Shown piece after piece: positions 1,316-59,019 of a stretch of DNA of 64,000 bases (position 1 is its first letter; every line of letters starts with the position of its first letter). The DNA is taken from IMG/VR virus record IMGVR_UViG_2724679183_000002, positions 76,933-140,932 of that record. One strand, written 5' to 3'. Source of the DNA: a virus (Duplodnaviria; Caudoviricetes). The notes below the pieces were generated by a model that was not told the origin of the DNA, ran no database searches, and saw only the letters and a program-made list of their open reading frames with translations. The position numbers and the translations under genes are program-made.

Positions 1316-1332
1316 TAAAATAAGGTGTTTCA
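1316..1332. repeat. junction palindrome, variant with 7-nt spacer
   Basis: TAAAA taaggtg TTTCA just after a stop codon. Confidence 0.5.
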
Positions 1333-1375
1333 ACTTTAAAAAATGGTTTTTGTTTTGCTGTTAGGCTAGAATTAA

Positions 1376-1999
1376 ATGAAAGGCGATGCTATCGTGAATC
1401 AAATAGTTTTAACATTAATAAATATATGGGATTGGTTTCTTTCCAATACAGGAAGTTTAGGAATGTTTGTATTAACAATTTTTATCGCATACTATTCTAA
1501 AAAATCTTCTAAGGCTAGCCTCGAGGCTGCAAAATTGGCTAAATATGAGTATGAAAGTAAAAAGGAACCCGAAATAATAATCTATTTTGAGTTAAATGAG
1601 TTTAATCTGGATTTTAAAATGATGAACATTGGTTATGGTGTAGCGACAAATGTCACTGTCAATTTAGAAGAAAAGAGCGGCACTTTCCAAAAGAGCTATA
1701 TGTACAAAATGAAAAATGGGATTTTTAACACCTGTATTCAGACATTTGCTCCAAATCAAGAAATCAAAGGGATTGCCGCTAGAGTTTCAGATATTAAAAA
1801 TGATGATTCTGAATATCCTGTTTTTACTTGTAATATCACTTATTCCGATATGAATGGAAAACTATATAATAAAAGGTATGACTTTGATTTGAATTATTTG
1901 GGGGGACTAGTTTGGACAGAAAAAGCAACCTTACATAATGTTGCTAATAGTCTAAAAGAAATTAAAGCAGAAATACAAAACCTTCATTCCAAGTCTTAA
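1376..1999 (+). CDS. accessory protein with N-terminal transmembrane helix
   Basis: 207 aa ORF, hydrophobic LGMFVLTIFIAYY segment. Confidence 0.75.
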   Translation: MKGDAIVNQIVLTLINIWDWFLSNTGSLGMFVLTIFIAYYSKKSSKASLEAAKLAKYEYESKKEPEIIIYFELNEFNLDFKMMNIGYGVATNVTVNLEEKSGTFQKSYMYKMKNGIFNTCIQTFAPNQEIKGIAARVSDIKNDDSEYPVFTCNITYSDMNGKLYNKRYDFDLNYLGGLVWTEKATLHNVANSLKEIKAEIQNLHSKS

Positions 2000-2080
2000 A
2001 TTATAATAAGGCTAACGAGAAACTTACGCTAAATTAATTTAAGGAAGATTAAATAAAAATAATTGTATTAAGGAGAAGTT

Positions 2081-2497
2081 ATGAAACAAGTTTACCTACA
2101 CATAAGATGGGAAGACCTTCACGGTGAAATTGGAGTGGATTCTTTTAATCTTTTGAGATTGATTTATTTGAATTTGAGCGAACAAGAATTAATAGAGGCA
2201 ATTAAAGCATTGATATTTATTGAGCGGGAGGATATAGCTGCCAAATTTGATATTCACCTATCTGAGAATAGCCCAGTTTTTAACGAACGGCAATATGTTG
2301 TTTACAAAGGAATTGCGGGAGAAATTAATTATAGAGACATGTTAATTTCATTGGCATCTACATTAGAAATGAGTAATACATTAGACCATGTGCAGAATAT
2401 CATGTCTTTAGCAAAATGTTTAAGAAGTTTTGATAGAGAGATTTTCGACAGATTTGCAAAGGATATCGCAGAAGAGGTGTATTATAGCCTTAAATAA
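2081..2497 (+). CDS. yopJ: YopJ-like protein
   Basis: 138 aa, immediately upstream of aimR as in SPbeta. Confidence 0.7.
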   Translation: MKQVYLHIRWEDLHGEIGVDSFNLLRLIYLNLSEQELIEAIKALIFIEREDIAAKFDIHLSENSPVFNERQYVVYKGIAGEINYRDMLISLASTLEMSNTLDHVQNIMSLAKCLRSFDREIFDRFAKDIAEEVYYSLK

Positions 2498-2544
2498 GGT
2501 TATTTTTGGAGACGCAATGAGGCCTTTTCCTCATTGTGTCTGTT

Positions 2545-2560
2545 TAAAATACGAATTTTA
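2545..2560. repeat. junction palindrome
   Basis: TAAAA tacgaa TTTTA. Confidence 0.7.
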
Positions 2561-2570
2561 ATCATATAAA

Positions 2571-2622
2571 AATAAAAAATAAGTATAAAGTGATTGACTG
2601 AAAATTGTTTGTTCTGTATTAT
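2571..2622 (+). promoter_or_regulatory. aimR sigmaA promoter with upstream AATAAAAAATAAGTAT repeat (SPBRE-like)
   Basis: TTGACT(2594)-N17-TATTAT(2617). Confidence 0.7.
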
Positions 2623-2663
2623 AAGAGTATAAACAACGGTACATATGAAAAGAGGGGAATCGA

Positions 2664-3824
2664 ATGGAGCTTATAAGAATAGCTATGCGAAAAGATTTGG
2701 AAAATGATAAATCTCTCATGAGTAAATGGGCTACGGTAGCTGGTCTTAAAAACCCAAACCCCCTTTACGATTTCTTAAATCATGATGGGAAAACATTTAA
2801 TGAATTCTCTTCTCTTGTTAATATTGTGAAAAGCCAGTACCCTGAACGCGAATACGAGCTAATGAAAGACTATTGTGAGCATCTTGATCCTAATACTAAA
2901 GCAGCAAGAAGCGCATTAGAGTATGCAGATGCGAATAAATACTATGAAATTGAAGACAAATTGATTAGTTCAATGGTTGAAAGTAGCAATAATAAAAGCA
3001 AAGAATATGGAAAGGTATACGAGATACATAGAGAACTAACCCAAGAAAATATTAATGAGTTTGAGGCGACAAAAAGACTCGGAAGATTGAATATTAAAAC
3101 AGCCGAAATGAACAACTTTGCGCGCATTTCTTTGCTATACCATTATCTAGAGTCAGGTAACTTTGCTCCAATGGATAGATTGATAAAACAAGTTGACCTT
3201 TCTGAAGTTAAAGAAAATCTTTTTGTTAAAAACCTATATCAGACCCGAGTTTTTGTTTTACAATCGAACATTAAACTGAATGAGAATAAATTAAGTGAAT
3301 GCAGAGAGTATGCAAAGAAAGCAATTGACAGTACCAATATCCAGAGGTTTCAAGTCTTTAGCTATCTTACTGCTGGTAATTCATTATTATTTACAGACTA
3401 CCACAAAGCTAAAGACTATTTTCTAAAGGGGCTAAGTGCTTCAACTGACAGTAACATCTATCAAAGAATATTGAGACAAGCTCTCTGTTTTTTAAACAAC
3501 GTTTGGGAAAAAGAAAACGATTTTCTAAACACCGATTCTAAGGAGATAATAGATTTACAGGAATACGCACATATGCTTATAAATAAAAAAAATACAGAAA
3601 GAGCAAAAAAAATTCTGGATCAATTAGATCAATTGGAACATAACGATAATGAGTTGGCCATGCATTATTACTTAAAAGGAAAACTCAAAATGGACAAGCA
3701 GTGCTTTTATTCATCAATTGAGTACTTTAAAAAATCAAACGATAAGTTTCTTATCAGATTACCGTTAATAATGTTAAAACAACTGGGAGAGAATGAAAAG
3801 CTTTTAAATCTCTTGGCGTTATAA
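2664..3824 (+). CDS. aimR: arbitrium receptor AimR (HTH + TPR, RRNPP family)
   Basis: 386 aa, N-terminus MELIRIAMRKDLENDKSLMSKWATVAGLKNPNPLYDFL nearly identical to SPbeta AimR as recalled. Confidence 0.97.
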   Translation: MELIRIAMRKDLENDKSLMSKWATVAGLKNPNPLYDFLNHDGKTFNEFSSLVNIVKSQYPEREYELMKDYCEHLDPNTKAARSALEYADANKYYEIEDKLISSMVESSNNKSKEYGKVYEIHRELTQENINEFEATKRLGRLNIKTAEMNNFARISLLYHYLESGNFAPMDRLIKQVDLSEVKENLFVKNLYQTRVFVLQSNIKLNENKLSECREYAKKAIDSTNIQRFQVFSYLTAGNSLLFTDYHKAKDYFLKGLSASTDSNIYQRILRQALCFLNNVWEKENDFLNTDSKEIIDLQEYAHMLINKKNTERAKKILDQLDQLEHNDNELAMHYYLKGKLKMDKQCFYSSIEYFKKSNDKFLIRLPLIMLKQLGENEKLLNLLAL

Positions 3825-4916: not shown

Positions 4917-5138
4917 ATGTCAAAGCGAATTAAAAAGCTGATGGAAGAACGCAACATCACAATAGAACAGATTGCAAAAGAAACAATGATTAATATTGAA
5001 AAACTCAAGAAAATCATTAATGAACCGCATGAGGGAGATGTAACTTCCGTTAAGCTGATCGCTTTGGTGCTGGATGTCTCCATTGATGATCTAATTTATG
5101 ATAACGATTTTAAACGGGAAGGAGGAAAGGAACAATGA
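4917..5138 (+). CDS. yopO: YopO/SroC XRE-family HTH regulator
   Basis: AAGGAGG RBS before ATG 4917; HTH_XRE pattern IKKLMEERNITIEQIAKET. Confidence 0.85.
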   Translation: MSKRIKKLMEERNITIEQIAKETMINIEKLKKIINEPHEGDVTSVKLIALVLDVSIDDLIYDNDFKREGGKEQ

Positions 5139-6217
5139 GTGCAGAAATTAAACCTATTAAGGAATATAAAGTGTTTGATGACATTATGTCGTTTCTCTAT
5201 AGCAAGGACATAGCCAGTAGCTCTGGGAACTCAAAGTATCAAACCAAGGACGCGCCTATGGTTTCTAATACACGAAAAAATTATACAGGTGATATAAAGC
5301 AATTTTTCAGGATCTTAAAAGAAAAAGAAATCGAATATTTGTCTGAAAGTGATTTAACGATTACTAAAAGCGATCTGACAGGGTTTATTAAGTATCTTCA
5401 AAGTAAAGGGCTTGTAAACAAAACCATTAAAAGAAAATTAGCATCCCTAAAAATGCTTTATAAGTACCTTAGCTACGATTACAAAGAATTTATTGACTTA
5501 AGTGTTTTTGATTCTGTTGGAAAGTTGAAAACAGTTGAAAAAAACTGGGGAAGAACTAATAAAGAAGAAGCCGATCTTATCGCAGAAGACATGTATATTA
5601 ACGAACGCCAAAAACCATTACTCAAAAAGCTTTGTGTGAAGGCAGCAGCAAGAACTTCTTTTCGTCTTAGTGCGTTATTAAGAATTAGATGGAGTGATTT
5701 TGAAATTGATTCAGCGACCGAGCATTATGTGGTTTCTGTTTTAGACAAGGGATCCAAAGTGGTGTCAACGGGAATCAATAAATCTTTTTATGAAGAGCTT
5801 TTAGAACTAAAGAATAAAAATACAGTCGACACAGATTATGTTTTTAAAGGGCTTTCTGAGCAATCACTTAGACATTCTTTAAAACGTTCTAAAGAAAGGC
5901 TGGGTATTCCGCCAGAGAGGGACTTGAAATTTCACTCTTTTAAGGGAGTGGGTATTGACTATGTTTATGAACACACTGGGCACGACATATTAGCTGCAAG
6001 AGAACAAGGAAATCATAGCAGTGTATCAACCACAGAACGCTATATGAGCAAAAGAAATGATATATCTAAAACTGCTGGTGTTATTATGGACGAGGAAATT
6101 GAAATAAACAAGCTTTATGAAGCTAAGAAAGAAGATTTTGTTTCTTTTTTTGAAAAAGCAGAGCCGGCTATACTGAATAAATTCATTAAATTCCTATCGG
6201 AATCTAATGGGTTCTAA
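5135..6217 (+). CDS. yopP: YopP/SroD tyrosine recombinase-family protein
   Basis: FRLSAL, DKG, HSFK, GNH...RY motifs. Confidence 0.9.
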   Translation: MSAEIKPIKEYKVFDDIMSFLYSKDIASSSGNSKYQTKDAPMVSNTRKNYTGDIKQFFRILKEKEIEYLSESDLTITKSDLTGFIKYLQSKGLVNKTIKRKLASLKMLYKYLSYDYKEFIDLSVFDSVGKLKTVEKNWGRTNKEEADLIAEDMYINERQKPLLKKLCVKAAARTSFRLSALLRIRWSDFEIDSATEHYVVSVLDKGSKVVSTGINKSFYEELLELKNKNTVDTDYVFKGLSEQSLRHSLKRSKERLGIPPERDLKFHSFKGVGIDYVYEHTGHDILAAREQGNHSSVSTTERYMSKRNDISKTAGVIMDEEIEINKLYEAKKEDFVSFFEKAEPAILNKFIKFLSESNGF

Positions 6218-6307
6218 TTTTAATGATTATTATTTATTTTTCTCTTGATAATAAAGTTGCCCTTTGGTAACTTTATTTTAGCGACATAATATGAGGTGAT
6301 ACAAATA

Positions 6308-7699
6308 ATGACGGTGATATTTGACCAAGCTGCAAATGAGAAATTGCTCAGCGAAATGAGAGATGTGTTCTCTAGAAAAAAACATATTCGCTCTTTTATA
6401 AATGATGTCCATACAGTTATGGCTGAGTTTAAAATATCTCCTGGCTCAACACAAAAAATAATTAATGAATTAGAAAAACCTGAGTTAGACCTTTCGAAAG
6501 AATATATGTACTTCTTAGCTAAATGTCTATTCAAGATTCTTGAATCAGAGAGGTTTAATCCTGCTAATTATTTTACAGAAGCAGATATGCAAGAAATTGA
6601 AACGCTTTGGGAAGGCGAAGTAGAAGAAGAAATTAAATTTCCTTACACTTTTAAAAATGCCGTTAAATACTCAGAAAGTAACTTAACGTTCCAAATTACG
6701 GCTGAAGATCTTTATCGCCTATTTGAAAACAAACTTCTTCATTATAATCCAAATGCACAAAGAACAAATAAAACCAAGAAGCTTGAAGGAACTGATATTG
6801 AAATACCTGTACCAGAGTTAAACAAAAAATCGGTGGAAGAAATAAAAGAGCTTTTTAAAGACGGCAAGTTGATTAGCTCAATGTTTACTTTTAATGCACG
6901 TGTAGGAAGTGCAGATGAAGGAATTGAGTTAATATATGACGAAGAAAGTATGTCTTTAACTATAACAGAAGGTACGATATTGGATGTATTGGATGGGTAT
7001 CATAGGCTTATAGGGATAACTGCTGCAATTAGGCAACATCCTGAGCTCAAGCACTTACTAAAACGTGTGTTTAAAGTGGATATTTACAACTACACTCAAA
7101 AGCAGGCGAGAGAGCATTTTGGACAACAGAACACTATAAACCCTGTGAAAAAGTCCAAGGTTGCTGAGATGAGTCAACATCACTTTTCAAATAAGATTGT
7201 TAAGTTTATTCAAGACAACAGTCTTATTGGTGATTACATTAAGACCAACGGTGATTGGATTAACCGGGGCCAAAACCAGTTAATTACCTTTTCCGATTTC
7301 AAGAAAGCAATTGAACGTAGCTATTACAAAAAGGATTTTAGTAATCAAGCGGATATCTTGAAAACAGGAAGGTATTTAAGTGCATTTTTTGATGCAATAG
7401 CCAATATTTATATTGATGAATTTTTAGGAAGTATTGCAGATGAACGTAAGCGGTCTCTTGTAAACAGCAATTTGTTCTTTAACGGGTATGTTCTCTTAGC
7501 GAAACGATTCCAGGAGTTAAATGTTTCAATTGATGACTTAGAAAATAAAGTAAAAGAAGTACTAAAACCAATTGATTTTGGAAAAGACAACGAGCTGTGG
7601 AAGGAACTTGGGATTATTGATAATAACGGTAATCCGAAAGCTCCTCAAAAGATATGTGACTTCTTCAGAGATATAGAGATAGAACAGCAATTTAATTAG
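6308..7699 (+). CDS. yopQ: YopQ/SroE, DndB/ParB-like (DGxHR) repressor
   Basis: VLDGYHRL motif, synteny. Confidence 0.85.
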   Translation: MTVIFDQAANEKLLSEMRDVFSRKKHIRSFINDVHTVMAEFKISPGSTQKIINELEKPELDLSKEYMYFLAKCLFKILESERFNPANYFTEADMQEIETLWEGEVEEEIKFPYTFKNAVKYSESNLTFQITAEDLYRLFENKLLHYNPNAQRTNKTKKLEGTDIEIPVPELNKKSVEEIKELFKDGKLISSMFTFNARVGSADEGIELIYDEESMSLTITEGTILDVLDGYHRLIGITAAIRQHPELKHLLKRVFKVDIYNYTQKQAREHFGQQNTINPVKKSKVAEMSQHHFSNKIVKFIQDNSLIGDYIKTNGDWINRGQNQLITFSDFKKAIERSYYKKDFSNQADILKTGRYLSAFFDAIANIYIDEFLGSIADERKRSLVNSNLFFNGYVLLAKRFQELNVSIDDLENKVKEVLKPIDFGKDNELWKELGIIDNNGNPKAPQKICDFFRDIEIEQQFN

Positions 7700-7707: not shown

Positions 7708-8697
7708 ATGTTTGATGCAATGTTCAATAGTGATATTAAGGAAAAGTATTTGGATTCTGTTACAGAAGCAGTAGCCCATCAATTAAGGCCTCTATTCTCA
7801 AAATCAGAGATAACAGAAAATCTTTATAAAAAAGATATTTATGACTTCACTTCAGTGCAGATTTTAGAATTAATACGATCATTCGACCAAACAACAATTG
7901 GGAGTGTAAAAAGAACATTATCATTATTGTCAACGTATATCGATTGGGCAACATCTTATAATTTGAGCAAAGGTGCTGTTAACTTAGCGAGAACGATATC
8001 GAACGATGAGCTTTATGAGTGCCTAGGTGATAAAAAATTATACATCTCATTTAGTGAACTGGAAGACATGCAAGACAAATTACTCAATTATCAATCGAAA
8101 GCAGTGCTCAGATGTTTATTTGAGGGTATATCAGGCATGGCTCATTCTGAACTACTTAGTCTTTCAAGGCAACAAATAGAAGAAGCAATGCTAAACGGCA
8201 ACGTACTGACACTACATGACATAAAGAATGGAGATCGAAAGTTAAAAGTGAGTAGCGACTGTCTTATTATTGCTTTAAATGCTTCGAAAGAAAGTACGTA
8301 CCAATTAAAAAATGGAAGAGCCGAAGGACGAGCAAAAGAAGTTTCTTTAGTGGACAATGACTTTGTAATTAAAACTAAAAAAACCAGAGGTAAAAATGAA
8401 GGTCAAGCAGGTAGACATATAATAACGAACTTAATAACAGATATCTCTGAGTTCTTTAAAATAAACTTCCTGACACCTAATACAATTGTAAGATCAGGAC
8501 ATCTTTATCGTGCATATCAGCTTTATAAAGAACGAGGTGTTATTGATAACGCTGTTAGATACCAAATCATTGATGAATTTAATTTGAACGTAAATAGAGT
8601 CAGGGCTGTTTACAGCATGAAAGATTACATTAATGAAGAAGAGATAAAAAAGCTCTATGCAGAAGAATTAGGCTTGAAAGATGAAGAATTAATTTAA
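7708..8697 (+). CDS. yopR: YopR/MrpR/SroF master repressor, integrase fold
   Basis: 329 aa integrase-like protein lacking the canonical catalytic R/H, last gene of the operon. Confidence 0.85.
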   Translation: MFDAMFNSDIKEKYLDSVTEAVAHQLRPLFSKSEITENLYKKDIYDFTSVQILELIRSFDQTTIGSVKRTLSLLSTYIDWATSYNLSKGAVNLARTISNDELYECLGDKKLYISFSELEDMQDKLLNYQSKAVLRCLFEGISGMAHSELLSLSRQQIEEAMLNGNVLTLHDIKNGDRKLKVSSDCLIIALNASKESTYQLKNGRAEGRAKEVSLVDNDFVIKTKKTRGKNEGQAGRHIITNLITDISEFFKINFLTPNTIVRSGHLYRAYQLYKERGVIDNAVRYQIIDEFNLNVNRVRAVYSMKDYINEEEIKKLYAEELGLKDEELI

Positions 8698-9937: not shown

Positions 9938-10117
9938 ATGTTGCTTGATGAAAAGCTGAATAAATTAAAAGGCGCATATGACACACTCCTCATTCATAAG
10001 AGTAAAAATGAAATGAGAAGAGTTGTAGGATTGTTTCACTCAATAATTGATTATGCGTATGAAGGCATGTACATAGCTGAGGCACAAATCGACCAAGAAG
10101 GAGAGGCAAATGATTAG
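9938..10117 (+). CDS. 59 aa hypothetical protein MLLDEKLNKLK...
   Basis: AAGGAGG RBS, hand translation. Confidence 0.6.
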   Translation: MLLDEKLNKLKGAYDTLLIHKSKNEMRRVVGLFHSIIDYAYEGMYIAEAQIDQEGEAND

Positions 10118-10352
10118 TATAAAAAGTCCTAAGATTAATACAATTACACTAACTGACTCTAACAAAGCAAGTTTAGTTAGAAGAATTATAGAAAAAGAGA
10201 AACTCGGTTATGAATGCACTCATCCAATAACAGAGAAGTTCTTTGAGTTTGTTGCTACCGGTTCTGCTAAAAGGGGTAGCAAATACCGAAGGGAATACAT
10301 AGGGTATACAAAATTTTTCACCAAAATGAAACTTATTAAAAATAAAATATAA
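10110..10352 (+). CDS. hypothetical protein
   Basis: 80 aa ORF with RBS. Confidence 0.6.
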   Translation: MISIKSPKINTITLTDSNKASLVRRIIEKEKLGYECTHPITEKFFEFVATGSAKRGSKYRREYIGYTKFFTKMKLIKNKI

Positions 10353-10357: not shown

Positions 10358-10373
10358 TAAAATGTAAGTTTTA
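10358..10373. repeat. junction palindrome
   Basis: TAAAA tgtaag TTTTA. Confidence 0.7.
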
Positions 10374-10422: not shown

Positions 10423-10659
10423 ATGAAGAATTTATGTTGTGAAACGTGTGGGTTGGATACCCATGAAAATACAACGCCTATCTTTGAAAAGCCTTTAAGA
10501 TTTGCTTTTCGATCAGATATCAAGCAGTTAGAACAAAATACTGACGACCATAGAAAACAAGAAAATATCTGTTTAGACTGTTTCACTGCTGAATTGCAAC
10601 AGGTTAGCAAGGATTGTAAAACACGGTGCAAATTTAAATCAAAGGAGAGCGGACAATGA
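10423..10659 (+). CDS. small Cys-rich hypothetical protein
   Basis: CETC/CLDC motifs, GAGGAG RBS. Confidence 0.65.
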   Translation: MKNLCCETCGLDTHENTTPIFEKPLRFAFRSDIKQLEQNTDDHRKQENICLDCFTAELQQVSKDCKTRCKFKSKESGQ

Positions 10660-11324
10660 ATCTACAAAAAATGTTCGAAATGCAAAAGGTGCTGGATGAT
10701 CGGATCATCAAAGAAAAGGGGCTTGAGGGGCGGGACTTGCTGCCGAACCTCATTCTTGCTCTACAGGTGGAGCTGGCCGAGTGTGCGAATGAATGGCGCG
10801 GCTTTAAGCATTGGAGTGATGACCGGGAGCCGCGTACGAAAATAGAGCATTTTTGTCCAACATGTGATGGCACTGGCGATGAAAATCATGATATTAATTT
10901 GCAATATCTCGAAGAAGGGCATGCAGTTGAACCATATTCCGAATGCCAAGACTGCAACGGCTCTGGGAAGTTAGGTGAAACAAATCCTCTACTTGAGGAA
11001 TACGTTGACTGCCTGCACTTTATTTTGAGTATTGGGAATCACATCAATTATAAAATCGTCTCTACAAAAGAATTACAAGCGTTCTTTTGTGAAATTAATC
11101 TGACGGAACAATTCGCCTCATTATTTGAGGAAATCGTATATATGGCACAAGCAACGAGAGGTCATTCTCCAGCGGAACAAGCGTTAGCAAAGTATAGGTA
11201 TGTATCTCTATTTCAAATATTCATAGGCTTGGGAGTAATGCTCGATTTTACCACTGAACAAATCGAAGCCGCCTACATGGAGAAAAACGCCGTCAATCAT
11301 CAGCGGCAGCAGGAGGGGTATTGA
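10656..11324 (+). CDS. dimeric (all-alpha) dUTPase with Zn-finger insertion
   Basis: Q-LD, ALQVELAECANEWRGFKHW, LLEEYVDCLHF, KNAVNHQRQ motifs; CPTCDGTG/CQDCNGSG insert. Confidence 0.88.
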   Translation: MNLQKMFEMQKVLDDRIIKEKGLEGRDLLPNLILALQVELAECANEWRGFKHWSDDREPRTKIEHFCPTCDGTGDENHDINLQYLEEGHAVEPYSECQDCNGSGKLGETNPLLEEYVDCLHFILSIGNHINYKIVSTKELQAFFCEINLTEQFASLFEEIVYMAQATRGHSPAEQALAKYRYVSLFQIFIGLGVMLDFTTEQIEAAYMEKNAVNHQRQQEGY

Positions 11325-11928: not shown

Positions 11929-11944
11929 TAAAAGATGCATTTTA
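11929..11944. repeat. junction palindrome, left of SEFIR gene
   Basis: tctaaa TAAAA gatgca TTTTA aagag. Confidence 0.75.
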
Positions 11945-13500: not shown

Positions 13501-13516
13501 TAAAAGGATTATTTCA
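13501..13516. repeat. junction palindrome, right of SEFIR gene
   Basis: TAAAA ggatta TTTCA. Confidence 0.7.
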
Positions 13517-14266: not shown

Positions 14267-14282
14267 TGAAATCGTGATTTTA
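14267..14282. repeat. junction palindrome
   Basis: tctaaa TGAAA tcgtga TTTTA aatag. Confidence 0.75.
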
Positions 14283-14718: not shown

Positions 14719-14734
14719 TAAAAGATAGTTTTTA
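14719..14734. repeat. junction palindrome
   Basis: TAAAA gatagt TTTTA. Confidence 0.75.
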
Positions 14735-15536: not shown

Positions 15537-16319
15537 ATGACTAAAATTAACGAAAAGATTCATGTGCTAACCGACGAAAGTTTAGGCAGAATCAAACGCG
15601 AATATGTAGAGGTCGATAGGAAGGCAGATGTGGGAGATCGAGTTGTTGCAGATGGAGACTATCGGGAGGTCGTAGCCATTTCTTCGAGGCGTGGCATTTG
15701 TTTAGACGGAGATATATGTCTAGGAATTCCCCATTCTTACCGTACTCTTGAACCGACCAGCATTGTCCACATTGACGGTGAGCGCTATAAAATGGTCGAC
15801 CGAAAGGCAAAAGTAGGCGAGAAAGTAATCATTACCGAGAGAGTAGATTTTTATATGGACGACATGACTGTTGGAAAAGTATATGAAGTTATAAATATTA
15901 GTGGAGAAGAAGATGTTGAGGTAATGGATGACACCGAGGAAAAAGCGACTGCATCGAAGAGCGGTTATCTAAGCCTCGTCTCACTGACTAAAGAAAATAA
16001 GCACCAAAAACCTAAAGCAAAGACAAGAGGATACAAAGAAGTCAAAAATCTTATACATCATGAATTAAGTATCACGAGGCAAGATATTCAAGAAATGATT
16101 AATGTTGCAGTAATAAATGAAATCAAGAAAATGTCCGAGGCAGGAGAGTTTTATAAAATAGCAAGCTCAAAAATTGACTCGATTATTAAAGATGGATTCA
16201 GTGACAGAGGGAATTTGCTATATGGATTTAAGGAGAGGGTGTCACAAACAATTTCTGATGAGGTAGGAAAACGTATCGCCAATAATTTAAACATAAATGT
16301 GGAATTGAAAAATCAATAA
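15537..16319 (+). CDS. phage protein with tandem VDRKAxVG (SH3-like) repeats
   Basis: EVDRKADVGDRV / MVDRKAKVGEKV. Confidence 0.7.
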   Translation: MTKINEKIHVLTDESLGRIKREYVEVDRKADVGDRVVADGDYREVVAISSRRGICLDGDICLGIPHSYRTLEPTSIVHIDGERYKMVDRKAKVGEKVIITERVDFYMDDMTVGKVYEVINISGEEDVEVMDDTEEKATASKSGYLSLVSLTKENKHQKPKAKTRGYKEVKNLIHHELSITRQDIQEMINVAVINEIKKMSEAGEFYKIASSKIDSIIKDGFSDRGNLLYGFKERVSQTISDEVGKRIANNLNINVELKNQ

Positions 16320-16332
16320 AATAGTTATTTTA
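16317..16332. repeat. junction palindrome overlapping the stop codon
   Basis: TAAAA tagtta TTTTA. Confidence 0.75.
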
Positions 16333-18672: not shown

Positions 18673-19004
18673 TGTTTCTGAATTTATTGAGAGATGCCCG
18701 GATATTAAGAAGAGAACTTCTTCCTGGAGCTTTAGCATTCGTGGGCATGAACTTGTTTGTATACTTTCTATTCGGTGGTTTAACAGCTACAGACTATCAG
18801 ATCATGGTAACACGAAGGACAGCAATGGTTATTGTAAGTATTGGAATACCATGTTGTTTTGTTCTAAAGTACTTGATCGTTTGGAGACCGTTAATCCGAA
18901 AGGCAATGGAAGAGTTAAAGGAAGAAGATCAGAATGTACGTATACTCAAGAAATATGAATTTCTAAGAAGGAAATTTGATAAAACAGAGATTTTATCAGG
19001 ATAA
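18669..19004 (+). CDS. two-TM membrane protein
   Basis: two hydrophobic segments. Confidence 0.65.
18980..18995. repeat. junction palindrome, left of gad1
   Basis: ttga TAAAA cagaga TTTTA tcag. Confidence 0.75.
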
Positions 19005-19029
19005 AAATAAAATGAAAAGGGGATTTTTA

Positions 19030-19917: not shown

Positions 19918-20179
19918 ATTGGATAAAGACTACATGATAAATCAATTGGAACTGCCGGAATCCTCAATCCTAGAAGAAATCACTGGCATTTCTAGGTGGA
20001 GCGTTAACTATAGAATTGTGTTCCCATATCAAGGTCGCTTTTATGAAACTTTTTATAGCAGGGGAGCAACTGAAATCCAAGATGAGAGCCCTTGGGAATA
20101 TGATGATCAAGTGGAATGTTATGAAGTTGAATTAAAAGAGGTAAAGGTTAAGAAATGGGCACGGAAAGAATCTAAATAA
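19907..20179 (+). CDS. 90 aa protein coupled to gad1
   Basis: overlaps the gad1 3' end; SRWS...GATEIQDESPWE. Confidence 0.75.
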   Translation: MKIKLDKDYMINQLELPESSILEEITGISRWSVNYRIVFPYQGRFYETFYSRGATEIQDESPWEYDDQVECYEVELKEVKVKKWARKESK

Positions 20180-20192
20180 AAACGATATTTTA
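20177..20192. repeat. junction palindrome overlapping the stop codon
   Basis: tctaaa TAAAA acgata TTTTA. Confidence 0.75.
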
Positions 20193-20377: not shown

Positions 20378-20393
20378 TAAAAGTAATTTTTTA
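20378..20393. repeat. junction palindrome
   Basis: ctgaa TAAAA gtaatt TTTTA. Confidence 0.75.
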
Positions 20394-23406: not shown

Positions 23407-23422
23407 TGAAATTGTAATTTTA
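23407..23422. repeat. junction palindrome
   Basis: taga TGAAA ttgtaa TTTTA acaag. Confidence 0.75.
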
Positions 23423-23821: not shown

Positions 23822-23888
23822 TCGTTTCATTATAATTGCAGGGTTTCGATAATTATCTGAAGCCTTGCAATTCCTCAACAAATATTAA

Positions 23889-35042: not shown

Positions 35043-35055
35043 ATAATATTCGGAA

Positions 35056-35802
35056 GTGATGAAAATTTTCAAAAAACTTATAGACAAATATAAAAAATAT
35101 GTATATTATAATATTACAAATATAACCCTTGTTGCAAGTATTACTCTCTTATTAGCTGGGGCTGTTCTCAGTATTAAAAATTTTAATAGGGAGGACGAAG
35201 AAAGCGTTAAGGCTCCTGTAAAATGGTCATTTTATAAGAATCAAAAAGAAGCGATTGTTGAGAAATTCACACATGGACAGGAAAGAAAGTTTGAACTCCC
35301 TAGGCTGAAAAGCAACCTAGAAAAGCGTGAAGAGAGTCAAAAAAAGTTTATCTATGAAAAGATTGAGTATCCTAAGGTGCAAAAGTCAAAAAAGCCACAG
35401 AGATTAATTTATTCAAATACAAAAAATAAGCATTATAAAAAGGGGAGGAGAAGTACAGTACAAAAAGAAAAGGCTCAGGGTTACTCAAAATCCTTAAATG
35501 TTGTAGCAACTGCATATACTGCCTTTTGTTCAACTGGTTGTATTGGTAAAACTAAGACAGGCTATGACGTAACAAGTACCTCATCCTACAGAGGAAAAAG
35601 GATTATCGCTGTTGATCCAAATATTATACCTTTGTATTCATTGGTTGAAGTAAGGTACAAAGGCGGTAGCTTTCAAGCGTATGCTATTGATACTGGGGGC
35701 GATATAAAAAGTAACCGAATCGATATTCTAATGAACACAAAAAGTGAAGCAAAATTATTTGGCAGACAGCAAGTGAATATCAGAATACTTGAAAATAACT
35801 AG
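35056..35802 (+). CDS. yorM: YorM-like membrane-anchored 3D-domain protein
   Basis: TM helix; ATAY, IAVDP, DTGG.I...RID 3D motifs. Confidence 0.88.
   Translation: MMKIFKKLIDKYKKYVYYNITNITLVASITLLLAGAVLSIKNFNREDEESVKAPVKWSFYKNQKEAIVEKFTHGQERKFELPRLKSNLEKREESQKKFIYEKIEYPKVQKSKKPQRLIYSNTKNKHYKKGRRSTVQKEKAQGYSKSLNVVATAYTAFCSTGCIGKTKTGYDVTSTSSYRGKRIIAVDPNIIPLYSLVEVRYKGGSFQAYAIDTGGDIKSNRIDILMNTKSEAKLFGRQQVNIRILENN
35081..35109 (+). promoter_or_regulatory. SPBRE-like promoter inside the yorM coding sequence
   Basis: TAGACA-aatataaaaaatatgta-TATTAT. Confidence 0.55.
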
Positions 35803-37205: not shown

Positions 37206-37724
37206 ATGATTAAAGTAATTGCAATTGACATGGATCAGGTTTTGGCAGACTTACTAAGTGATTGGGTATCTTACATAAACACACACGATGATCCTTTGCT
37301 GAATGAGGAAGACATATTGTGTTGGAATATTAAAAAATATGTAAATACCAAAAACAATGTTTATAGACATTTGGATTACGATCTATTTAGAAACCTTAAT
37401 GTCATAGAAGGTAGCCAAAGAGTTGTTAAAGAGCTTATGAAGAAGTATGAAGTGTATGTAGTCACAACAGCCACAAATCATCCTGAGTCTTTAAAAGCAA
37501 AGCTAGAATGGCTGGCAGAGCATTTTCCGTTTATCTCGCATAGTAATGTTGTACTATGTGGCAATAAAAACATAATTAAAGCAGACATAATGATTGATGA
37601 CGGAATACATAACTTAGAAACATTTGATGGGATAAAGATACTATTCGACGCACCCCATAACAGGAATGAAGACAGATTTATTCGTGTAAGAGATTGGGAA
37701 GAGATCGAACAAAAATTACTTTAA
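37206..37724 (+). CDS. yorS: 5'(3')-deoxyribonucleotidase (HAD)
   Basis: IAIDMDQVLAD, IDD motifs. Confidence 0.9.
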   Translation: MIKVIAIDMDQVLADLLSDWVSYINTHDDPLLNEEDILCWNIKKYVNTKNNVYRHLDYDLFRNLNVIEGSQRVVKELMKKYEVYVVTTATNHPESLKAKLEWLAEHFPFISHSNVVLCGNKNIIKADIMIDDGIHNLETFDGIKILFDAPHNRNEDRFIRVRDWEEIEQKLL

Positions 37725-37737
37725 AATATCTCTTTTA
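37722..37737. repeat. junction palindrome overlapping the yorS stop codon
   Basis: TAAAA tatctc TTTTA. Confidence 0.75.
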
Positions 37738-38457: not shown

Positions 38458-38486
38458 TAGACAAAAATAAAAAATAAGTATAAAAT
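38458..38486 (+). promoter_or_regulatory. SPBRE-like promoter
   Basis: TAGACA-aaaataaaaaataagta-TAAAAT. Confidence 0.8.
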
Positions 38487-38518: not shown

Positions 38519-38725
38519 ATGAATCGTGTATGTGATATCTGTAAGGAATACATAGAAGGCCAAATCATATGCCTCAGAGTAAGTGACTTGAAGACTTATG
38601 TAGACTTCAATTGTTGCAATGATTGCGCTCAAGAACAATCAAAACGTATTAAGAATGAATGCAGTGAAATGACCGTTTCAAAAACTTTGGAACACTTAAA
38701 TTTAAAAAGTGAAATAAGAGCATAA
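38519..38725 (+). CDS. YorZ-like Zn-binding protein
   Basis: CDIC/CNDC motifs. Confidence 0.65.
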   Translation: MNRVCDICKEYIEGQIICLRVSDLKTYVDFNCCNDCAQEQSKRIKNECSEMTVSKTLEHLNLKSEIRA

Positions 38726-38738
38726 AATATTCCTTTTA
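38723..38738. repeat. junction palindrome overlapping the stop codon
   Basis: TAAAA tattcc TTTTA tctag. Confidence 0.75.
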
Positions 38739-39534: not shown

Positions 39535-39550
39535 TGAAATTCAATTTTTA
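39535..39550. repeat. junction palindrome
   Basis: tctaaa TGAAA ttcaat TTTTA. Confidence 0.75.
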
Positions 39551-40469: not shown

Positions 40470-40481
40470 GGAGGTGAATAA

Positions 40482-40907: not shown

Positions 40908-41186
40908 TTGGCTAAACTTTTAATAGAATATGAAGGTGCCTTCGAGCTTACAGAAAATGTATGCGGAAATAAAATAATGTCTGGTACGACTTTAGTGCGA
41001 GACTTAGGGGATTTTATTACTTATGACTTAGTACTCAATGAGAAACCTAAGGTCAATATTAAAAGGGTTAATGATAAAGGGGAAATTATTCAAGAAATAA
41101 GTGGAGTGAAATTGTCAATTTCCGAAAACGAAAATAAGCAAAAAATTTTAGAAAACTTAACAACCTTGCTAAAAAAATCACTTTAA
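40908..41186 (+). CDS. hypothetical protein
   Basis: 92 aa ORF. Confidence 0.65.
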   Translation: MAKLLIEYEGAFELTENVCGNKIMSGTTLVRDLGDFITYDLVLNEKPKVNIKRVNDKGEIIQEISGVKLSISENENKQKILENLTTLLKKSL

Positions 41187-41199
41187 AAGTTTTATTTTA
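41184..41199. repeat. junction palindrome overlapping the stop codon
   Basis: TAAAA gtttta TTTTA. Confidence 0.7.
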
Positions 41200-41223
41200 T
41201 ATAAACAGAAGAGGAGTTTTAAT

Positions 41224-41550
41224 ATGACAAACGTTAACATTACCTTTTATACGGAAAAGGTAAATAAATATCTGGCAAATGAGTATGGATTAATAACAGA
41301 GGTAGACGCAGAAGCTAAAGAAGAAAATGGTGAACTTGTTCTTTTTAGAGTTTCTGAAACGGATTTAGAAAAATTAGAAGACCATCTGGAGAGCGGTAAA
41401 CGGGTCATTCTTAAACTTAAAGACGATAATGAATATGAAAAATGGTTCAAACTAGATGATATAAAATTAAAGTCCTTAGATTTAATCAACTGTAAAGCGT
41501 TCTTGAAACTAGAAGAAATCTTGGAATTACAAATTGAAATAAAAGGATGA
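41224..41550 (+). CDS. hypothetical protein, only gene between two palindromes
   Basis: GAGGAG RBS; its stop codon lies in the palindrome spacer. Confidence 0.7.
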   Translation: MTNVNITFYTEKVNKYLANEYGLITEVDAEAKEENGELVLFRVSETDLEKLEDHLESGKRVILKLKDDNEYEKWFKLDDIKLKSLDLINCKAFLKLEEILELQIEIKG

Positions 41551-41555
41551 TTTTA
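41540..41555. repeat. junction palindrome
   Basis: TAAAA ggatga TTTTA agtag. Confidence 0.75.
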
Positions 41556-43150: not shown

Positions 43151-43166
43151 TAAAATCACAGTTTCA
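43151..43166. repeat. junction palindrome
   Basis: tctaga TAAAA tcacag TTTCA tagaa. Confidence 0.75.
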
Positions 43167-50132: not shown

Positions 50133-50148
50133 TAAAAGAAGACTTTTA
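50133..50148. repeat. junction palindrome
   Basis: ctcta TAAAA gaagac TTTTA tctaa. Confidence 0.75.
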
Positions 50149-50395: not shown

Positions 50396-50662
50396 ATGGA
50401 GAATACTTATCGTTATTATAAATTAAACAAAGAACTACAGGCTGTAAAAGTTGTCTCTGGATTGCTTCCCAAAGAAAGCGAAGCTTATAGAGAACTGATT
50501 AAAATTGAAATTGGAATTTTAGAGGAAAAGAGAGATATTCTTAATGGCAAAGAAAAAATGAACAAACTGGATCAGGAACAAACAACAGACCTGGGAAGAC
50601 AGCTAACAGATAAGTTCGCTGAAGTTTTAGAAATTGTTGAAAGGATTAGCCATCATGGATAA
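50396..50662 (+). CDS. hypothetical protein
   Basis: 88 aa ORF with RBS. Confidence 0.65.
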   Translation: MENTYRYYKLNKELQAVKVVSGLLPKESEAYRELIKIEIGILEEKRDILNGKEKMNKLDQEQTTDLGRQLTDKFAEVLEIVERISHHG

Positions 50663-52783: not shown

Positions 52784-52809
52784 ACAAAAATAAAAAATAA
52801 GTATATTAT
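52781..52809 (+). promoter_or_regulatory. SPBRE-like promoter
   Basis: TAGACA-aaaataaaaaataagta-TATTAT; second repeat at 52852-52869. Confidence 0.8.
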
Positions 52810-54491: not shown

Positions 54492-54507
54492 TGAAATCTG
54501 TATTTTA
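54492..54507. repeat. junction palindrome
   Basis: TGAAA tctgta TTTTA. Confidence 0.7.
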
Positions 54508-56722: not shown

Positions 56723-56738
56723 TAAAATTCTAATTTTA
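56723..56738. repeat. junction palindrome
   Basis: TAAAA ttctaa TTTTA taaag. Confidence 0.75.
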
Positions 56739-56757: not shown

Positions 56758-56937
56758 ATGAGTTGGGGAATATCGCCTAAGGCAACGAATAAAGAGAAAT
56801 TGAAGGCTGAAATGGCTGATTACTTAAATGGTTTAAATTCAACAGGAGCAATAGGTTATGAAGTATATAGTGAATCATTTGATGTCTCTATGAAATTACT
56901 TGACAAAATGTATGAGCTAGGAAAATCCGAAAAATAA
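56758..56937 (+). CDS. 59 aa protein, only gene between two palindromes
   Basis: AAGGTG RBS, hand translation MSWGISPKATNK... Confidence 0.6.
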   Translation: MSWGISPKATNKEKLKAEMADYLNGLNSTGAIGYEVYSESFDVSMKLLDKMYELGKSEK

Positions 56938-56941
56938 TTGA

Positions 56942-56957
56942 TAAAATGTTGATTTGA
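56942..56957. repeat. junction palindrome variant
   Basis: ttga TAAAA tgttga TTTGA ttcaa. Confidence 0.6.
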
Positions 56958-56979
56958 TTCAAAAAAGGGAGGGGATGAC

Positions 56980-57336
56980 ATGATTCTTAAATGGGCTGAA
57001 AAAAGAGAGAAGGATAAGATGATGGATGACTTAGGTACATTCATCGACAATCTAATCAATGAAAGGGATTCCCTTGCAGACAAGGTAAGAAACTTCAGCA
57101 AAGATGAGGAAATCGCTAAATTGTTAAAAGAAAACGAGAATCTTAGAATTAACAGCCTTCATACTTTATCAGAAAAAGAAAGAGATGAAGCAGATGCTTT
57201 TAGGGATGAACATTGGGAAAAATGTAAAGGTAACATGGCTTATCTTTTGACAGGAGCAAGTATGGGTACAGCTATAGAGGTTATTTGCTCCAAATGTAAA
57301 ACCCAAAAAGACATCACAGACATTAGCGTGTGGTAA
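56980..57336 (+). CDS. coiled-coil/Zn-ribbon hypothetical protein
   Basis: H..KC ... CSKC. Confidence 0.7.
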   Translation: MILKWAEKREKDKMMDDLGTFIDNLINERDSLADKVRNFSKDEEIAKLLKENENLRINSLHTLSEKERDEADAFRDEHWEKCKGNMAYLLTGASMGTAIEVICSKCKTQKDITDISVW

Positions 57337-57714
57337 ACAAGATGGCGAAAAGTGATTCAAAGGAGATATACCGTTGACTATATATGAAAAAATAATGAAT
57401 CATCCGGAAAGCAAAAAGGCAGCGTTAATCAAGTTTGGCTTTGGGCAATTGTCACCGTTTAAGTTGAAAAATGGTTTAAGTCATATAATCCGCCCAAATA
57501 CTACGAATTTAGAAGAGCAGCTAACAGCAATAAGGTTACTGACTTACATACTCAAGTAATGACTAAGGAGCAAAGGACACACCTGTTAAATCTAGAAGAG
57601 GTCTTTAATGATGAAAAGTCTAGAAAGGCAGTATTAAAATTAGCAGAACAATACACCAAGTTGAAAAAGGGGTGACTGACTGTCATTGAAAAGCATGATT
57701 CTTGGAGGGATTAA

Positions 57715-58137
57715 ATGAATAGTGCAAACTCGGCAACATGGTTTGATTTGGACTTCGAGACTAAACCAGACAATGACATTGATGAAGCCCTATTGCGATT
57801 ATTTGATCTCATGAAGAAGAGTCTTCACATTTATTTCAATATTGAAAACTCTTTTGATATTCATGAGTTTTTAAATAACGCTACAGCAAAGAACGTTGAT
57901 AATTCTTTCATTGAATGGATTAGGGGAAAGGGCATCCCAAGATTAAAGAAAATTGACTTTAAAAACGTACCAAGCAATGATCAATTTCTTGCAATGATTG
58001 AATACGATGAACACTGTCTTAAATGTGAGATGGATTTTAAAGAACCGATTGAGGTAAGAAGTTGCATAATTACGATCATTAATAGTATTCAAGAATATAT
58101 TAATATTTGCAAACAGTTAATCAAAGGAGTGTTTTAG
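57715..58137 (+). CDS. hypothetical protein
   Basis: GGAGG RBS. Confidence 0.65.
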   Translation: MNSANSATWFDLDFETKPDNDIDEALLRLFDLMKKSLHIYFNIENSFDIHEFLNNATAKNVDNSFIEWIRGKGIPRLKKIDFKNVPSNDQFLAMIEYDEHCLKCEMDFKEPIEVRSCIITIINSIQEYINICKQLIKGVF

Positions 58138-58685
58138 TGGTGAAAACAGAATTTAATTTTAATGATGTATTAGAAAATTACAAGCGAAGAGATGAGGAAC
58201 GAAAAGAATTCATCATTCACAAAGGCTACACTGCTATCGAAGAGATCATTAAAGAAGTTAATAAAAGAGGATCGCTAAATGAAGCAGTTATTTATTATGG
58301 AACACCTAAACCACAGCTAAGTTTCTCGGACGTTGAATTAGGTTACATGCTTACTTCAATGATGGAATATGCGACAAATCATGTAGGAAATCCAGTAGAT
58401 GAGGAATGTGAATTTGAAAATAAACTGGCTTACTTTGAGTATAAGGACGAGATAATTCAGATTTTTGAAGTATATGGGCAAGGTACTGAAAGCTGGTTTT
58501 CGAAACCAGGTGACGAAACAATTGATAAATTGAATAACTCAGCTTACGGAGTGTATTTGATCCAGTTTGATGATTTCATTAATAGCACTAAAAATAAAGA
58601 AAATGAGAGTAACAAGCTTTCTTTAAGTAGCTCGATCCTAAATGACATTACCGGTGGATACACAGTCGAAAGGGGCTCTATTTAG
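58137..58685 (+). CDS. hypothetical protein (YGQGT motif)
   Basis: AAGGAG RBS, GTG start. Confidence 0.65.
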   Translation: MVKTEFNFNDVLENYKRRDEERKEFIIHKGYTAIEEIIKEVNKRGSLNEAVIYYGTPKPQLSFSDVELGYMLTSMMEYATNHVGNPVDEECEFENKLAYFEYKDEIIQIFEVYGQGTESWFSKPGDETIDKLNNSAYGVYLIQFDDFINSTKNKENESNKLSLSSSILNDITGGYTVERGSI

Positions 58686-59003
58686 ATGATTGTTACAGCT
58701 TGGATTTTATTAGTTGTATTTGGGCTAGTGGTGTTGGCGAATTTAGATTCCCGAGGGGAGATTAAATTTGCAGTTTATATTGGTGTATTAAAATTTGTTT
58801 CAGTATTCATTGTAGCTATAGCTGCAGGAGTAATTTGGGGAGGGTTGTTTCAATGAAAAATGTTAAACATGATCTTTCAGAAGAAACAGGTAGTGACTCA
58901 AATTCAAATGTCAAATGGGTTAAGTCGATAAAAATGAATCAACAAGAAGAACTTTATGAAATGACTAATTTATGAACCAGTGGAATTAAGTAAATAAACT
59001 GCA

Positions 59004-59019
59004 TAAAATCGGTCTTTTA
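59004..59019. repeat. junction palindrome
   Basis: ctgca TAAAA tcggtc TTTTA aagg. Confidence 0.75.

Follow-up and report, generated by a model that had tools for sequence, protein, structure and literature searches.

Integrons pair the integrase IntI with attI and attC sites, the latter folding as a single strand, and are built on one attI platform with the integrase adjacent and an array of cassettes. In the stoperators of cluster A mycobacteriophages, the immunity repressor binds asymmetric sites that follow the direction of transcription. The pdif sites have distinct XerC and XerD half-arms that are acted on by host XerCD. On the Rep_3 plasmids of Acinetobacter, many Xer-type sites per replicon are described as bounding the accessory dif modules, which vary on a conserved backbone (PMC13141974), and in T4-type phages a short repeated intergenic motif named PeSL (promoter-early stem-loop), described as a sigma70-like promoter with a terminator stem-loop that recombines by homology, is concentrated in the variable regions of a large genome (PMC2839356). 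Here we analyze a palindrome, TRAAA-N6-TTTYA, that recurs at the gene junctions of an SPbeta-like Bacillus phage. The sequence studied, referred to as the window, is a stretch of 64,000 nt (positions 76,933 to 140,932 of IMG/VR virus record IMGVR_UViG_2724679183_000002) that forms the final 64 kb of a single 140,932-bp contig with patchy 83-88% identity to Goe12, phi3T, SPBc2 and their relatives. We found no earlier description of this palindrome in the literature that we searched, the coverage of which was incomplete. Its copies are individually barcoded, ordered junction sites at which modules have been repeatedly exchanged, and we hold this description with high confidence. We put the probability of the complete mechanism that we propose, an in-register exchange of modules at heterospecific Xer-like sites, possibly by the phage protein YopP/SroD, slightly below even.

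The window contains 24 exact copies of the palindrome, compared to 2.92 +/- 1.69 in 100 dinucleotide shuffles (maximum 9, with none of the 100 reaching 24). A first-pass annotation, made from the sequence alone, had listed 21 copies and placed all of them at gene boundaries; every one is present, all 21 lie at junctions, and the three copies that fall within genes (35219, 38665, and 50506) are exactly those that it did not list. With junctions and gene interiors defined by a crude gene caller of our own, junction DNA (13,375 nt) held 20 copies versus 0.72 +/- 0.89 in 1000 shuffles (maximum 6), while gene interiors (50,625 nt) held 3 versus 1.95 +/- 1.49, which is the level of chance. The copies are therefore not equally frequent inside coding sequences, and because junction DNA shuffled alone gives 0.72 against 20, the enrichment is no by-product of A+T-rich spacers. 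In a census of all perfect 5-N(5-7)-5 inverted repeats in the window, TAAAA-N6 reached 16 copies and every other combination of arm and spacing had five or fewer. The annotation had seen no copy in the replication block between 24 and 37 kb, but one exact copy (35219) does lie there, within a gene. Four variants had also been proposed, of which 56942 stands as a one-mismatch site while 1316, 2054, and 39000 have just one good half-site. One-mismatch variants were rejected as a class, since copies with at most one mismatch number 72 versus 49.25 expected and, once the exact ones are removed, approximately 48 versus 46, which is again chance. The whole contig has 40 copies, 35 at junctions and 5 in genes, including some in the minus-strand late region, and SPBc2 has 36. 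Most palindromes sit in the early region, where we counted 24 in the window, 29 in SPBc2, 31 in Goe12, and 24 in phi3T. The sites avoid junctions between two core genes, which make up 4 of the 91 junctions with a site versus 67 of the 353 without one.

Across the 21 junction sites of the window and the 36 sites of SPBc2, conservation extends beyond the core to a 28-bp dyad, TYTnnA-TAAAA-N6-TTTTA-WnnARA, in which T at -6, Y at -5, T at -4, and A at -1 are mirrored by W at +16, A at +19, R at +20, and A at +21. The outward symmetry noted earlier is thus real, including a purine four bases to the right of the core in 21 of 21 junction copies, and the conserved positions from -6 to +21 bear out the proposed 11-6-11 geometry, with two inverted arms of about 11 bp around a 6-bp centre as in sites of the Xer/dif type. 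The placement relative to genes is also regular: at 5 sites the left arm supplies the upstream stop codon with its TAA, and at 4 more (9 of 24 together) the site begins 1 nt past the stop, while the next start codon lies 12-26 nt beyond the site in 13 of 24. This constant place just upstream of the ribosome-binding site would suit an RNA element, either a weak hairpin of A-U pairs or a protein-bound signal within polycistronic mRNA, acting on processing or translation of the downstream gene, and the arrangement TGAAA..TTTTA, which allows a plus-strand G-U pair, is commoner than TAAAA..TTTCA (5 versus 2 junction sites). However, we found no hairpin covariation at the variable mirror positions of the 21 window and 36 SPBc2 sites. 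Complementarity at offsets 2 and 3 was seen in 8 and 7 of the 21 window sites versus 5.5 and 5.7 expected, and in 10 and 8 of the SPBc2 sites versus 10.6 and 10.7, and the TGAAA and TTTCA arm variants occur independently of each other. For these reasons a DNA site for a symmetric protein is favored over a hairpin. Copies are also found in both contexts of transcription, some of them between convergent genes and some next to terminators, and an RNA element leaves the reverse-complement symmetry of the outer positions and the unique conserved loops unexplained. We consider such an element very improbable, and both a hairpin and the RNA-processing signal that the first-pass annotation had offered as an alternative were set aside for want of covariation, neither folding nor an Rfam search having been run.

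The palindrome also differs from the elements already described in these phages. The earlier suggestion that the copies are operators for integrase-fold Sro proteins is excluded for SroF/MrpR: a AATATGTAT-type word, the SPBRE that serves as the MrpR/SroF operator, is found in 9 of 10 ChAP-seq (chromatin affinity purification sequencing) target regions, while the exact palindrome is found in 3 of 10. We derived this word ourselves from the upstream regions of the SPBc2 targets, because the 15-bp motif common to the ChAP-seq peaks is not printed as a sequence in the text of the paper. The MrpR ChAP-seq experiment is reported to give 10 peaks, at promoters (PMC10516654), not the approximately 36 that binding to the palindromes would give in SPBc2, and the known repressor therefore does not use them. 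SroF is described as reading a 24-26 bp box as a monomer (10.1101/2025.11.27.690993). In the window, the mrpR/sroF homologue (7708..8697, plus strand, 329 amino acids; PF22823, E 2.5e-110) has a different element as its operator, which is probably the box AAAAATAAAAAATAAGTATAAA, the phage's own SPBRE-type MrpR/SroF box. This box, whose sequence is unlike the palindrome, occurs at 2567-2589, 23886-23908, 38463-38484, and 52786-52805 (20-23 nt identical), ahead of aimR and of three genes whose starts are near 23974, 38519, and 52882. Downstream of the copy at 23886 comes the match (23914-23942) that ranks first among the plus-strand promoter-like matches in the region scanned. A YonO promoter was rejected as well, as one start upstream of yonK is described as serving the entire late operon while the palindromes are many and mostly in the early region. 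Finally, the palindrome is not a promoter/terminator cassette. In the 10-24 kb interval, which has 10 palindromes, none of 13 terminator-like matches touches one, three weak (9 of 12) promoter-like matches overlap them, and promoter-like matches total 35 versus 50 in shuffled sequence.

All 6-nt spacers in the window differ, as had been noted, and we refer to them as barcodes because they recur between genomes: eleven of them (tgtaag, gatgca, gatagt, acgata, gtaatt, tattcc, ttcaat, gtttta, ggatga, ttctaa, and tcggtc) are also found in SPBc2 and keep their order there. When all 21 junction sites form the denominator and a per-base identity of 75% is assumed, in line with the approximately 75% DNA identity between the two phages, 11 identical spacers correspond to P = 3e-4. 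When all sites were compared between genomes, 54 pairs had an identical spacer despite flanks that cannot be aligned on either side, for which a rough estimate of the chance expectation is about 1-3 of 4309. To look beyond the named phages, IMG/VR was scanned for one barcoded 16-mer, which gave 94 stretches, of which 80 were taken as loci. Among these 80 listed loci, 34 have three or more palindromes, and the series tattcc-ttcaat-gtttta-ggatga-tcacag is found in approximately 25-30 with very variable spacing. The barcode order is kept across SPBc2, phi3T, Goe12, and about 30 viral contigs, even though the DNA that flanks a site is often unrelated on either side. As a dUTPase-like family follows gatagt in the window and gggtaa in SPBc2 and phi3T, the barcode belongs to the position and not to the gene.

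The barcodes bear directly on the main alternative, in which the palindromes are sites of a dimeric phage regulator or silencer (the ParB/DndB-like SroE/YopQ or a catalytically inert YopP) that act as roadblocks or operators ahead of many accessory genes, and module exchange is secondary. Exchange would then proceed through conserved islands between divergent cassettes, relaxed homologous recombination of the Sak4 type, and selection for intact genes. A dyad with a 5-6-5 core suits ordinary dimeric DNA binders as well as recombinases, and CRP-type dimeric binders have a comparable core geometry. The position at upstream stop codons and ahead of the next start described above would also suit a regulator, palindromes adjoin SPBRE boxes at 3 of 10 MrpR targets (aimR, yorE, and yosX), and yorG of SPBc2 is annotated as a Sak4-like annealing protein. 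PeSLs, moreover, are described as regulatory repeats that drive modular shuffling by recombination (PMC2839356). Yet a spacer that is not contacted by the protein should drift, while just over half of the window's junction spacers are identical in SPBc2, and outer-arm bases vary between genomes where the spacer does not, so that outer-arm positions are more variable than spacers. Although a regulator deserves to be taken seriously on these grounds and on those given below for its candidate proteins, we regard it as rather unlikely.

In the slots bounded by the same two barcodes in different genomes, the content is 340, 381, or 322 bp (gtttta to ggatga), 185 versus 418 bp (acgata to gtaatt), and 796 bp (yoqD) versus 2238 bp (gatgca to gtaaaa). 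Between the contents of these three slots, blastn found no match and tblastx found one match of only 17 amino acids (window versus SPBc2 in the gtttta-ggatga slot, E 2.8e-4). Among 28 phages, the contents of the gtttta-ggatga slot fall into 12 clusters, which together with 9 types of left flank and 12 types of right flank make up 25 combinations. Representatives of the 12 cassette types fall to 20-45% identity directly outside the cores, outer-arm positions excepted; the 100% spacer identity in this comparison is by construction. Homologous exchange would have little to act on in 16 bp of identity, yet these 25 combinations contain recurrent double exchanges at a distance of about 350 bp, which speaks against the regulator. 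The Gad1 unit occupies the cagaga-acgata slot in the window and in two loci, and in a further locus Gad1 is joined there by a 397-residue gene. In three others (L137, L154, and L169), the slot contains 484, 594, or 867 bp without relation to Gad1; of these, L154 and L169 have 195 bp in common at the start and L137 and L169 have 43 bp in common. Same-barcode slots thus hold unrelated genes, which supports the module swapping proposed by the first-pass annotation.

Breakpoints of homology are also enriched at the sites, as had been predicted: a breakpoint was found at 127 of 273 site-bearing junctions versus 273 of 1059 site-free ones, counted over 12 ordered genome pairs that are not independent. 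Sequencing runs were examined as assembled contigs only. When these metagenome contigs were compared to the window, 7 of the 26 joint ends listed lay at most 11 nt from a core versus 0.69 expected (P = 4e-6), in two runs from one independent study, with the joints of X1, the possible source, left out and the short-sided joints being weak evidence; one of these ends is the last base of the ggatga core. Two switches occur inside a site. In the first, the left arm is common and the spacer differs (ttgaag in SPBc2 versus agactg in phi3T), and in the second, at gtaaaa, the left arm and spacer are common and the right arm differs. These switches fit exchange at either spacer edge and equally a crossover in either arm.

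The first-pass annotation had gone further and proposed a system functionally like an integron, in which single-gene cassettes would be excised as circles and inserted at any site by a spacer-tolerant tyrosine recombinase. Several adjacent pairs do enclose exactly one gene, as it had stated: a SEFIR/TIR gene (12020-13441), the gene at 14307-14717, an open reading frame (ORF) of 43 codons (20212-20343), and the ORF at 41224-41550, and a coupled unit is enclosed in the case of Gad1 (19012-19917) and its 90-residue partner. There is also an apparent deletion between two barcodes, as the phi3T junction joins the left flank of SPBc2 ttgaag to the agactg spacer, and the window joins tatctc to gene family f64, which follows tttgtc in SPBc2, Goe12, and phi3T, so that the methylase slots are absent from the window. 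PeSL mini-circles are described as a precedent in T4-type phages (PMC2839356). Nevertheless, the barcodes are positional and collinear across genomes, and free insertion would scramble them. None of the cassettes brings a site with it, and one gene family (the dUTPase-like one) is found behind different barcodes. No attC-like folded structure or covariation was seen, the arms being A-T stretches of only 5 bp, and the 40 sites are spread over 140.9 kb instead of forming an array at a single platform. We found no empty slots or back-to-back hybrid sites in 17 closely spaced pairs of sites from four genomes; the pairs inspected have small or degenerate ORFs between the sites. An integron-like system is therefore improbable, and this part of the earlier proposal did not hold.

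The window encodes AimR (2664-3824), an Xre-type helix-turn-helix protein, and YopP-like, YopQ-like, and MrpR-like proteins. In support of the earlier proposal, the sro operon includes a Xer-like protein with a conserved catalytic set, namely the yopP/sroD homologue (5135..6217, plus strand, 360 amino acids), which has a Xer-like tyrosine-recombinase fold. Its best profile matches are XerC-like (4a8e), XerA, XerD, and XerH (E 1.6e-12 to 1.7e-7). The catalytic set consists of R177, K205, H267, K270 at the Arg-II position, H294, and Y303, with H-S-F-K aligned on H-x-L-R. In a family of 10 sequences with 24-88% identity, R177, K205, H267, H294, and Y303 are invariant, while the Arg-II position is K, or R in 2 of 10. 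YopP thus keeps the catalytic Tyr, His, Lys, and Arg-I across this range, unlike MrpR, in which catalytic residues are described as lost (PMC10516654), and this is a further point against a purely regulatory role. One array data set shows transcripts of yopP, and likewise of yopQ, in the dormant prophage (10.1101/2021.11.22.469490), which would suit a regulator made in lysogens as well as a recombinase. We found no YopP relatives outside Spbetavirus in the viral contigs (query P0008). YopP/SroD is a candidate binder or catalyst.

An alternative candidate binder is the yopQ/sroE homologue (6296..7699, plus strand, 467 amino acids), which is DndB-like (PF14072, E 1.1e-13). The DndB family is linked to DNA-sulfur modification systems. 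SroE is reported as a second repressor (10.1101/2025.11.27.690993), which adds to the case for a regulator, and the DndB likeness may bear on how SroE works. A third gene with a tyrosine-recombinase fold, yomM, lies in the late region outside the window (34970-35964 of the contig; 40301-41302 in SPBc2), and a palindrome downstream of it has the spacer gaggga in both phages. YomM is only distantly related to YopP and has a weak resemblance to Cre (E 0.002), and by eye it has H-L-F-K, the same H-x-F-K box as YopP; we regard it as a second candidate catalyst. Host Xer recombinases (RipX/CodV) might act on the sites instead, as proposed for pdif modules, and the 11-6-11 geometry would allow this, but here one sequence serves as both arms, as expected for a homodimer, in contrast to the separate XerC and XerD arms of Xer sites. 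We consider host enzymes the least probable of all the explanations, even though dif modules are held to use host XerCD (PMC12907356).

A number of observations weigh against exchange in register by a dedicated recombinase. The barcodes are not absolute, as shown by ttgtaa/ttgtag/ctgtag, gtaatt/tcaatt, cagaga/caggaa, ttcaat/ttcaaa, and drift at the aimR site. When sites were paired by an orthologous neighbour gene, only 16 pairs were obtained and spacer identity was mixed (0.67-0.89), although this pairing is confounded by gene mobility; positional orthologues, for their part, were partly recognized by the spacer, which introduces ascertainment bias. Gene families that sit behind different barcodes are unexplained by strict same-barcode exchange. 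Most breakpoints, roughly three quarters, lie elsewhere, with about one quarter within 30 nt of a site centre (10 of 40 for SPBc2 versus phi3T), and several insertions have a site at one end only, such as yoqR-yoqS in SPBc2 and an insert of 990 bp in phi3T. A crossover anywhere in a 16-bp core would fit the breakpoint pattern equally well, and this pattern does not separate a site-specific from a homology-driven process. The activity of YopP is uncertain because Lys replaces the canonical Arg-II, which is also in keeping with an inert, regulatory YopP, and by eye the same is true of YomM. Furthermore, a YopP relative in Paenibacillus agilis (31% identity, the sole genome-contig locus found by profile) has no palindromes within 10 kb, and no other enriched 5-N-5 repeat was found at that locus, although this single case says little either way.

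Despite these points, in-register exchange is the reading that we favor, because of the dyad, the 11-6-11 layout, the conserved and unique spacers, the boundaries at core edges, and an orphan Xer-like protein whose active site is preserved. In this model, the accessory parts of Spbetavirus genomes would be partitioned into ordered slots by the palindromes, which would be fixed junction sites, each with two 11-bp arms (TYTnnATAAAA) around a 6-bp barcode of its own. A dimeric phage protein would recognize the arms. When two related genomes are present in one cell, as a prophage and a superinfecting phage or through co-infection, crossovers inside the 16-bp cores of same-barcode sites would exchange the DNA between two barcodes in register and keep the gene order. 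The likeliest catalyst would be YopP/SroD, the orphan Xer-like tyrosine recombinase of the lysogen-transcribed sro operon, with YomM second. That a protein binds the arms, which protein this is, and that catalysis is site-specific rather than a matter of general recombination are steps that we infer from sequence. The most specific form of the model is a natural recombinase-mediated cassette exchange with approximately 25-40 heterospecific Xer-like sites, each with its own 6-bp overlap, and the phage-encoded YopP/SroD made in lysogens, and we put it forward tentatively, as a possibility that falls well short of even.

If the model is correct, a prophage and a related incoming phage could trade genes of defence, anti-defence, and metabolism one slot at a time while each keeps its synteny and its own DNA, and a testable function would be available for YopP/SroD, which has long been an orphan integrase-like protein. 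Dedicated exchange points would explain how very large temperate phages combine a fixed gene order with rapid turnover of defence and anti-defence genes, and both Gad1 and the SEFIR/TIR protein occupy such slots in the window. Naturally orthogonal short recombination sites would also be a useful tool set. Under the regulatory alternative, approximately 40 conserved sites for a protein would add a layer to SPbeta gene control that has been missing so far. The barcodes are of practical use under either mechanism, as they give exact anchors in a search for alternative cassettes, and the other contents of the Gad1 slot, together with the 12 cassette types of the gtttta-ggatga slot, are anti-defence candidates.

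Individual sites illustrate these patterns along the window. The first (2545..2560, spacer tacgaa) lies between a terminator-like hairpin and aimR, with an SPBRE-type box 7 nt later, and its spacer drifts to ttggaa in SPBc2 and taggaa in Goe12. The site at 10358..10373 (tgtaag) is 5 nt past the stop of the ORF at 10110-10352, and its barcode recurs in SPBc2, Goe12, and phi3T with unrelated flanks. The site at 11929..11944 (gatgca) is the left border of the SEFIR/TIR slot; this barcode is also present in SPBc2, Goe12, and phi3T, where the next gene is yoqD (SPBc2 and phi3T) or an ORF of 732 codons (Goe12). The right border of the SEFIR/TIR gene, at 13501..13516 (TAAAA..TTTCA, ggatta), has no counterpart site in these three genomes, nor does the site at 14267..14282 (TGAAA.., tcgtga), which is 1 nt past the upstream stop and forms the left border of the gene at 14307-14717. 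One nucleotide past the stop of that gene is the site at 14719..14734 (gatagt), with a dUTPase gene 22 nt downstream and the barcode again present in SPBc2, Goe12, and phi3T beside different neighbours. The SEFIR/TIR protein (473 amino acids; PF08357, E 1.5e-19; PF13676, E 2.5e-16), in its one-gene slot, could be a defence or counter-defence gene. The tgtaag-gatgca slot contains a dUTPase_2-family gene (10656-11324, 222 amino acids, with a DnaJ-type CXXCXGXG motif). As 10656-11317 has 95.7% DNA identity to a stretch of phage phi105 (a 39-kb record), this suggests a recent transfer of a single gene between phage types. The genes at 14757-15254 and 49189-49623 belong to the same dUTPase-like family in different slots, and the dUTPase_2 gene is unrelated to them.

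At 16317..16332 (tagtta), the left-arm TAA is the stop of 15537-16319, and relatives have tattta (5 of 6 bases) ahead of the same downstream gene family. The Gad1 unit is bordered on the left by the site at 18980..18995 (cagaga), whose barcode is also found in viral loci L122, L137, L154, L169, and L171, with caggaa in L123. At 20177..20192 (acgata), the TAA is the stop of the Gad1 partner ORF; this site bounds the Gad1 slot on its right and a one-gene slot on its left, and its barcode occurs in SPBc2, Goe12, and viral loci. The right border of the one-gene slot is at 20378..20393 (gtaatt), and the content is the 43-codon ORF in the window versus yoqY (131 amino acids) in SPBc2 and Goe12, with unrelated DNA. 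The site at 23407..23422 (TGAAA.., ttgtaa) is 1 nt past the stop of 21663-23405, and viral loci have ttgtag or ctgtag at the matching distance. The exact copy at 35219..35234 (tggtca) is within the yorM-like ORF at 35059-35802 and has a counterpart at the matching place in the gene order (aagtca in SPBc2 and phi3T, gagtca in Goe12) alongside the same gene family. Coding conservation could explain this copy, the status of which is uncertain. The other two genic copies, at 38665..38680 (TGAAA..TTTCA, within the ORF at 38519-38725) and 50506..50521 (within 50396-50662), are consistent with the chance expectation for gene interiors.

The TAA of the site at 37722..37737 (tatctc) is the stop of 37206-37724, and its barcode and left flank are as in phi3T. 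That of the site at 38723..38738 (tattcc) is the stop of 38519-38725, and the tattcc barcode is also present in SPBc2, Goe12, phi3T, and approximately 20 viral loci. The next barcode, ttcaat (39535..39550, TGAAA..), is found in SPBc2, Goe12, phi3T, and most SPbeta-like viral loci, with ttcaaa in a divergent subgroup. The hypervariable one-gene slot is bordered on the left by 41184..41199 (gtttta) and on the right by 41540..41555 (ggatga), which overlaps the end of the ORF at 41224-41550. Metagenome contigs lose homology at the last base of the ggatga core and resume it in one contig 1 nt before the site at 43151..43166 (..TTTCA, tcacag), whose barcode is downstream of ggatga in 14 of the viral loci listed. 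The site at 50133..50148 (gaagac) corresponds to gaatac (5 of 6 bases) in SPBc2, Goe12, and phi3T, and its right flank is homologous to that of the Goe12 copy. At 54492..54507 (TGAAA.., tctgta), the site lies between convergent genes and is followed by a terminator-like hairpin, and the barcode is shared with Goe12 and phi3T. The gene at 56758-56937 has the site at 56723..56738 (ttctaa, also in SPBc2, Goe12, and phi3T) as its left border and is followed by the degenerate copy at 56942..56957 (right arm TTTGA, tgttga), whose barcode belongs to an exact site that follows the ttctaa slot in Goe12. The last site, at 59004..59019, has the barcode tcggtc, which is also present in SPBc2, Goe12, and phi3T.

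Two other repeated elements occur in the vicinity of the palindromes. A second repeat type, (A)GAATAAAAATAAAAT(TA), is directly beside several of them (approximately 10335-10352 and 18997-19012 in the window), either just upstream or in the gap that separates the site from the ribosome-binding site. Many sites in SPBc2, Goe12, phi3T, and viral loci also have this repeat next to them, and in L171 it is duplicated before each gene. The SPBc2 record annotates 'palindrome' features at 77856-77871 and 82394-82411, near yopM and yopS, with sequences unlike the element studied here, and these are probably operators of Xre-type regulators.

When compared to the known systems, the palindromes resemble integrons in that a site of the tyrosine-recombinase type borders promoterless single-gene cassettes, often with adaptive functions, but here there is no folded attC, no single platform, and no cassette-borne site, and the barcodes are positional. 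Like stoperators, they are dozens of short sites in tiny intergenic gaps across a temperate phage genome; unlike them, they are palindromic, and they are not sites of the MrpR repressor. SPBRE is likewise a repeated intergenic element of these phages, and some of its copies are approximately 10-30 bp from a palindrome (aimR, yorE, and yosX), but it is described as a long non-palindromic box read by a monomer, with about 10 copies at promoters, in contrast to a dyad with 36 copies in SPBc2. As for PeSLs, insertions, deletions, and replacements between relatives are bounded by the motif in both cases, yet the SPbeta palindrome is without promoter or terminator, and each copy has a unique conserved spacer. 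The dif modules are similar in another way: in both systems, modules are bounded by sites and varied on the same backbone, and the evidence is mainly comparative, which is also how exchange at identical spacers is seen here. The differences are that the replicon is a phage, that one symmetric arm sequence takes the place of distinct XerC and XerD arms, that a fixed collinear series of approximately 25-40 barcodes is accompanied by a phage-encoded Xer-like protein, and that the contents are defence, anti-defence, and nucleotide-metabolism genes. The system would be a phage counterpart of dif modules with symmetric arms, a collinear barcode series, and a recombinase candidate of its own.

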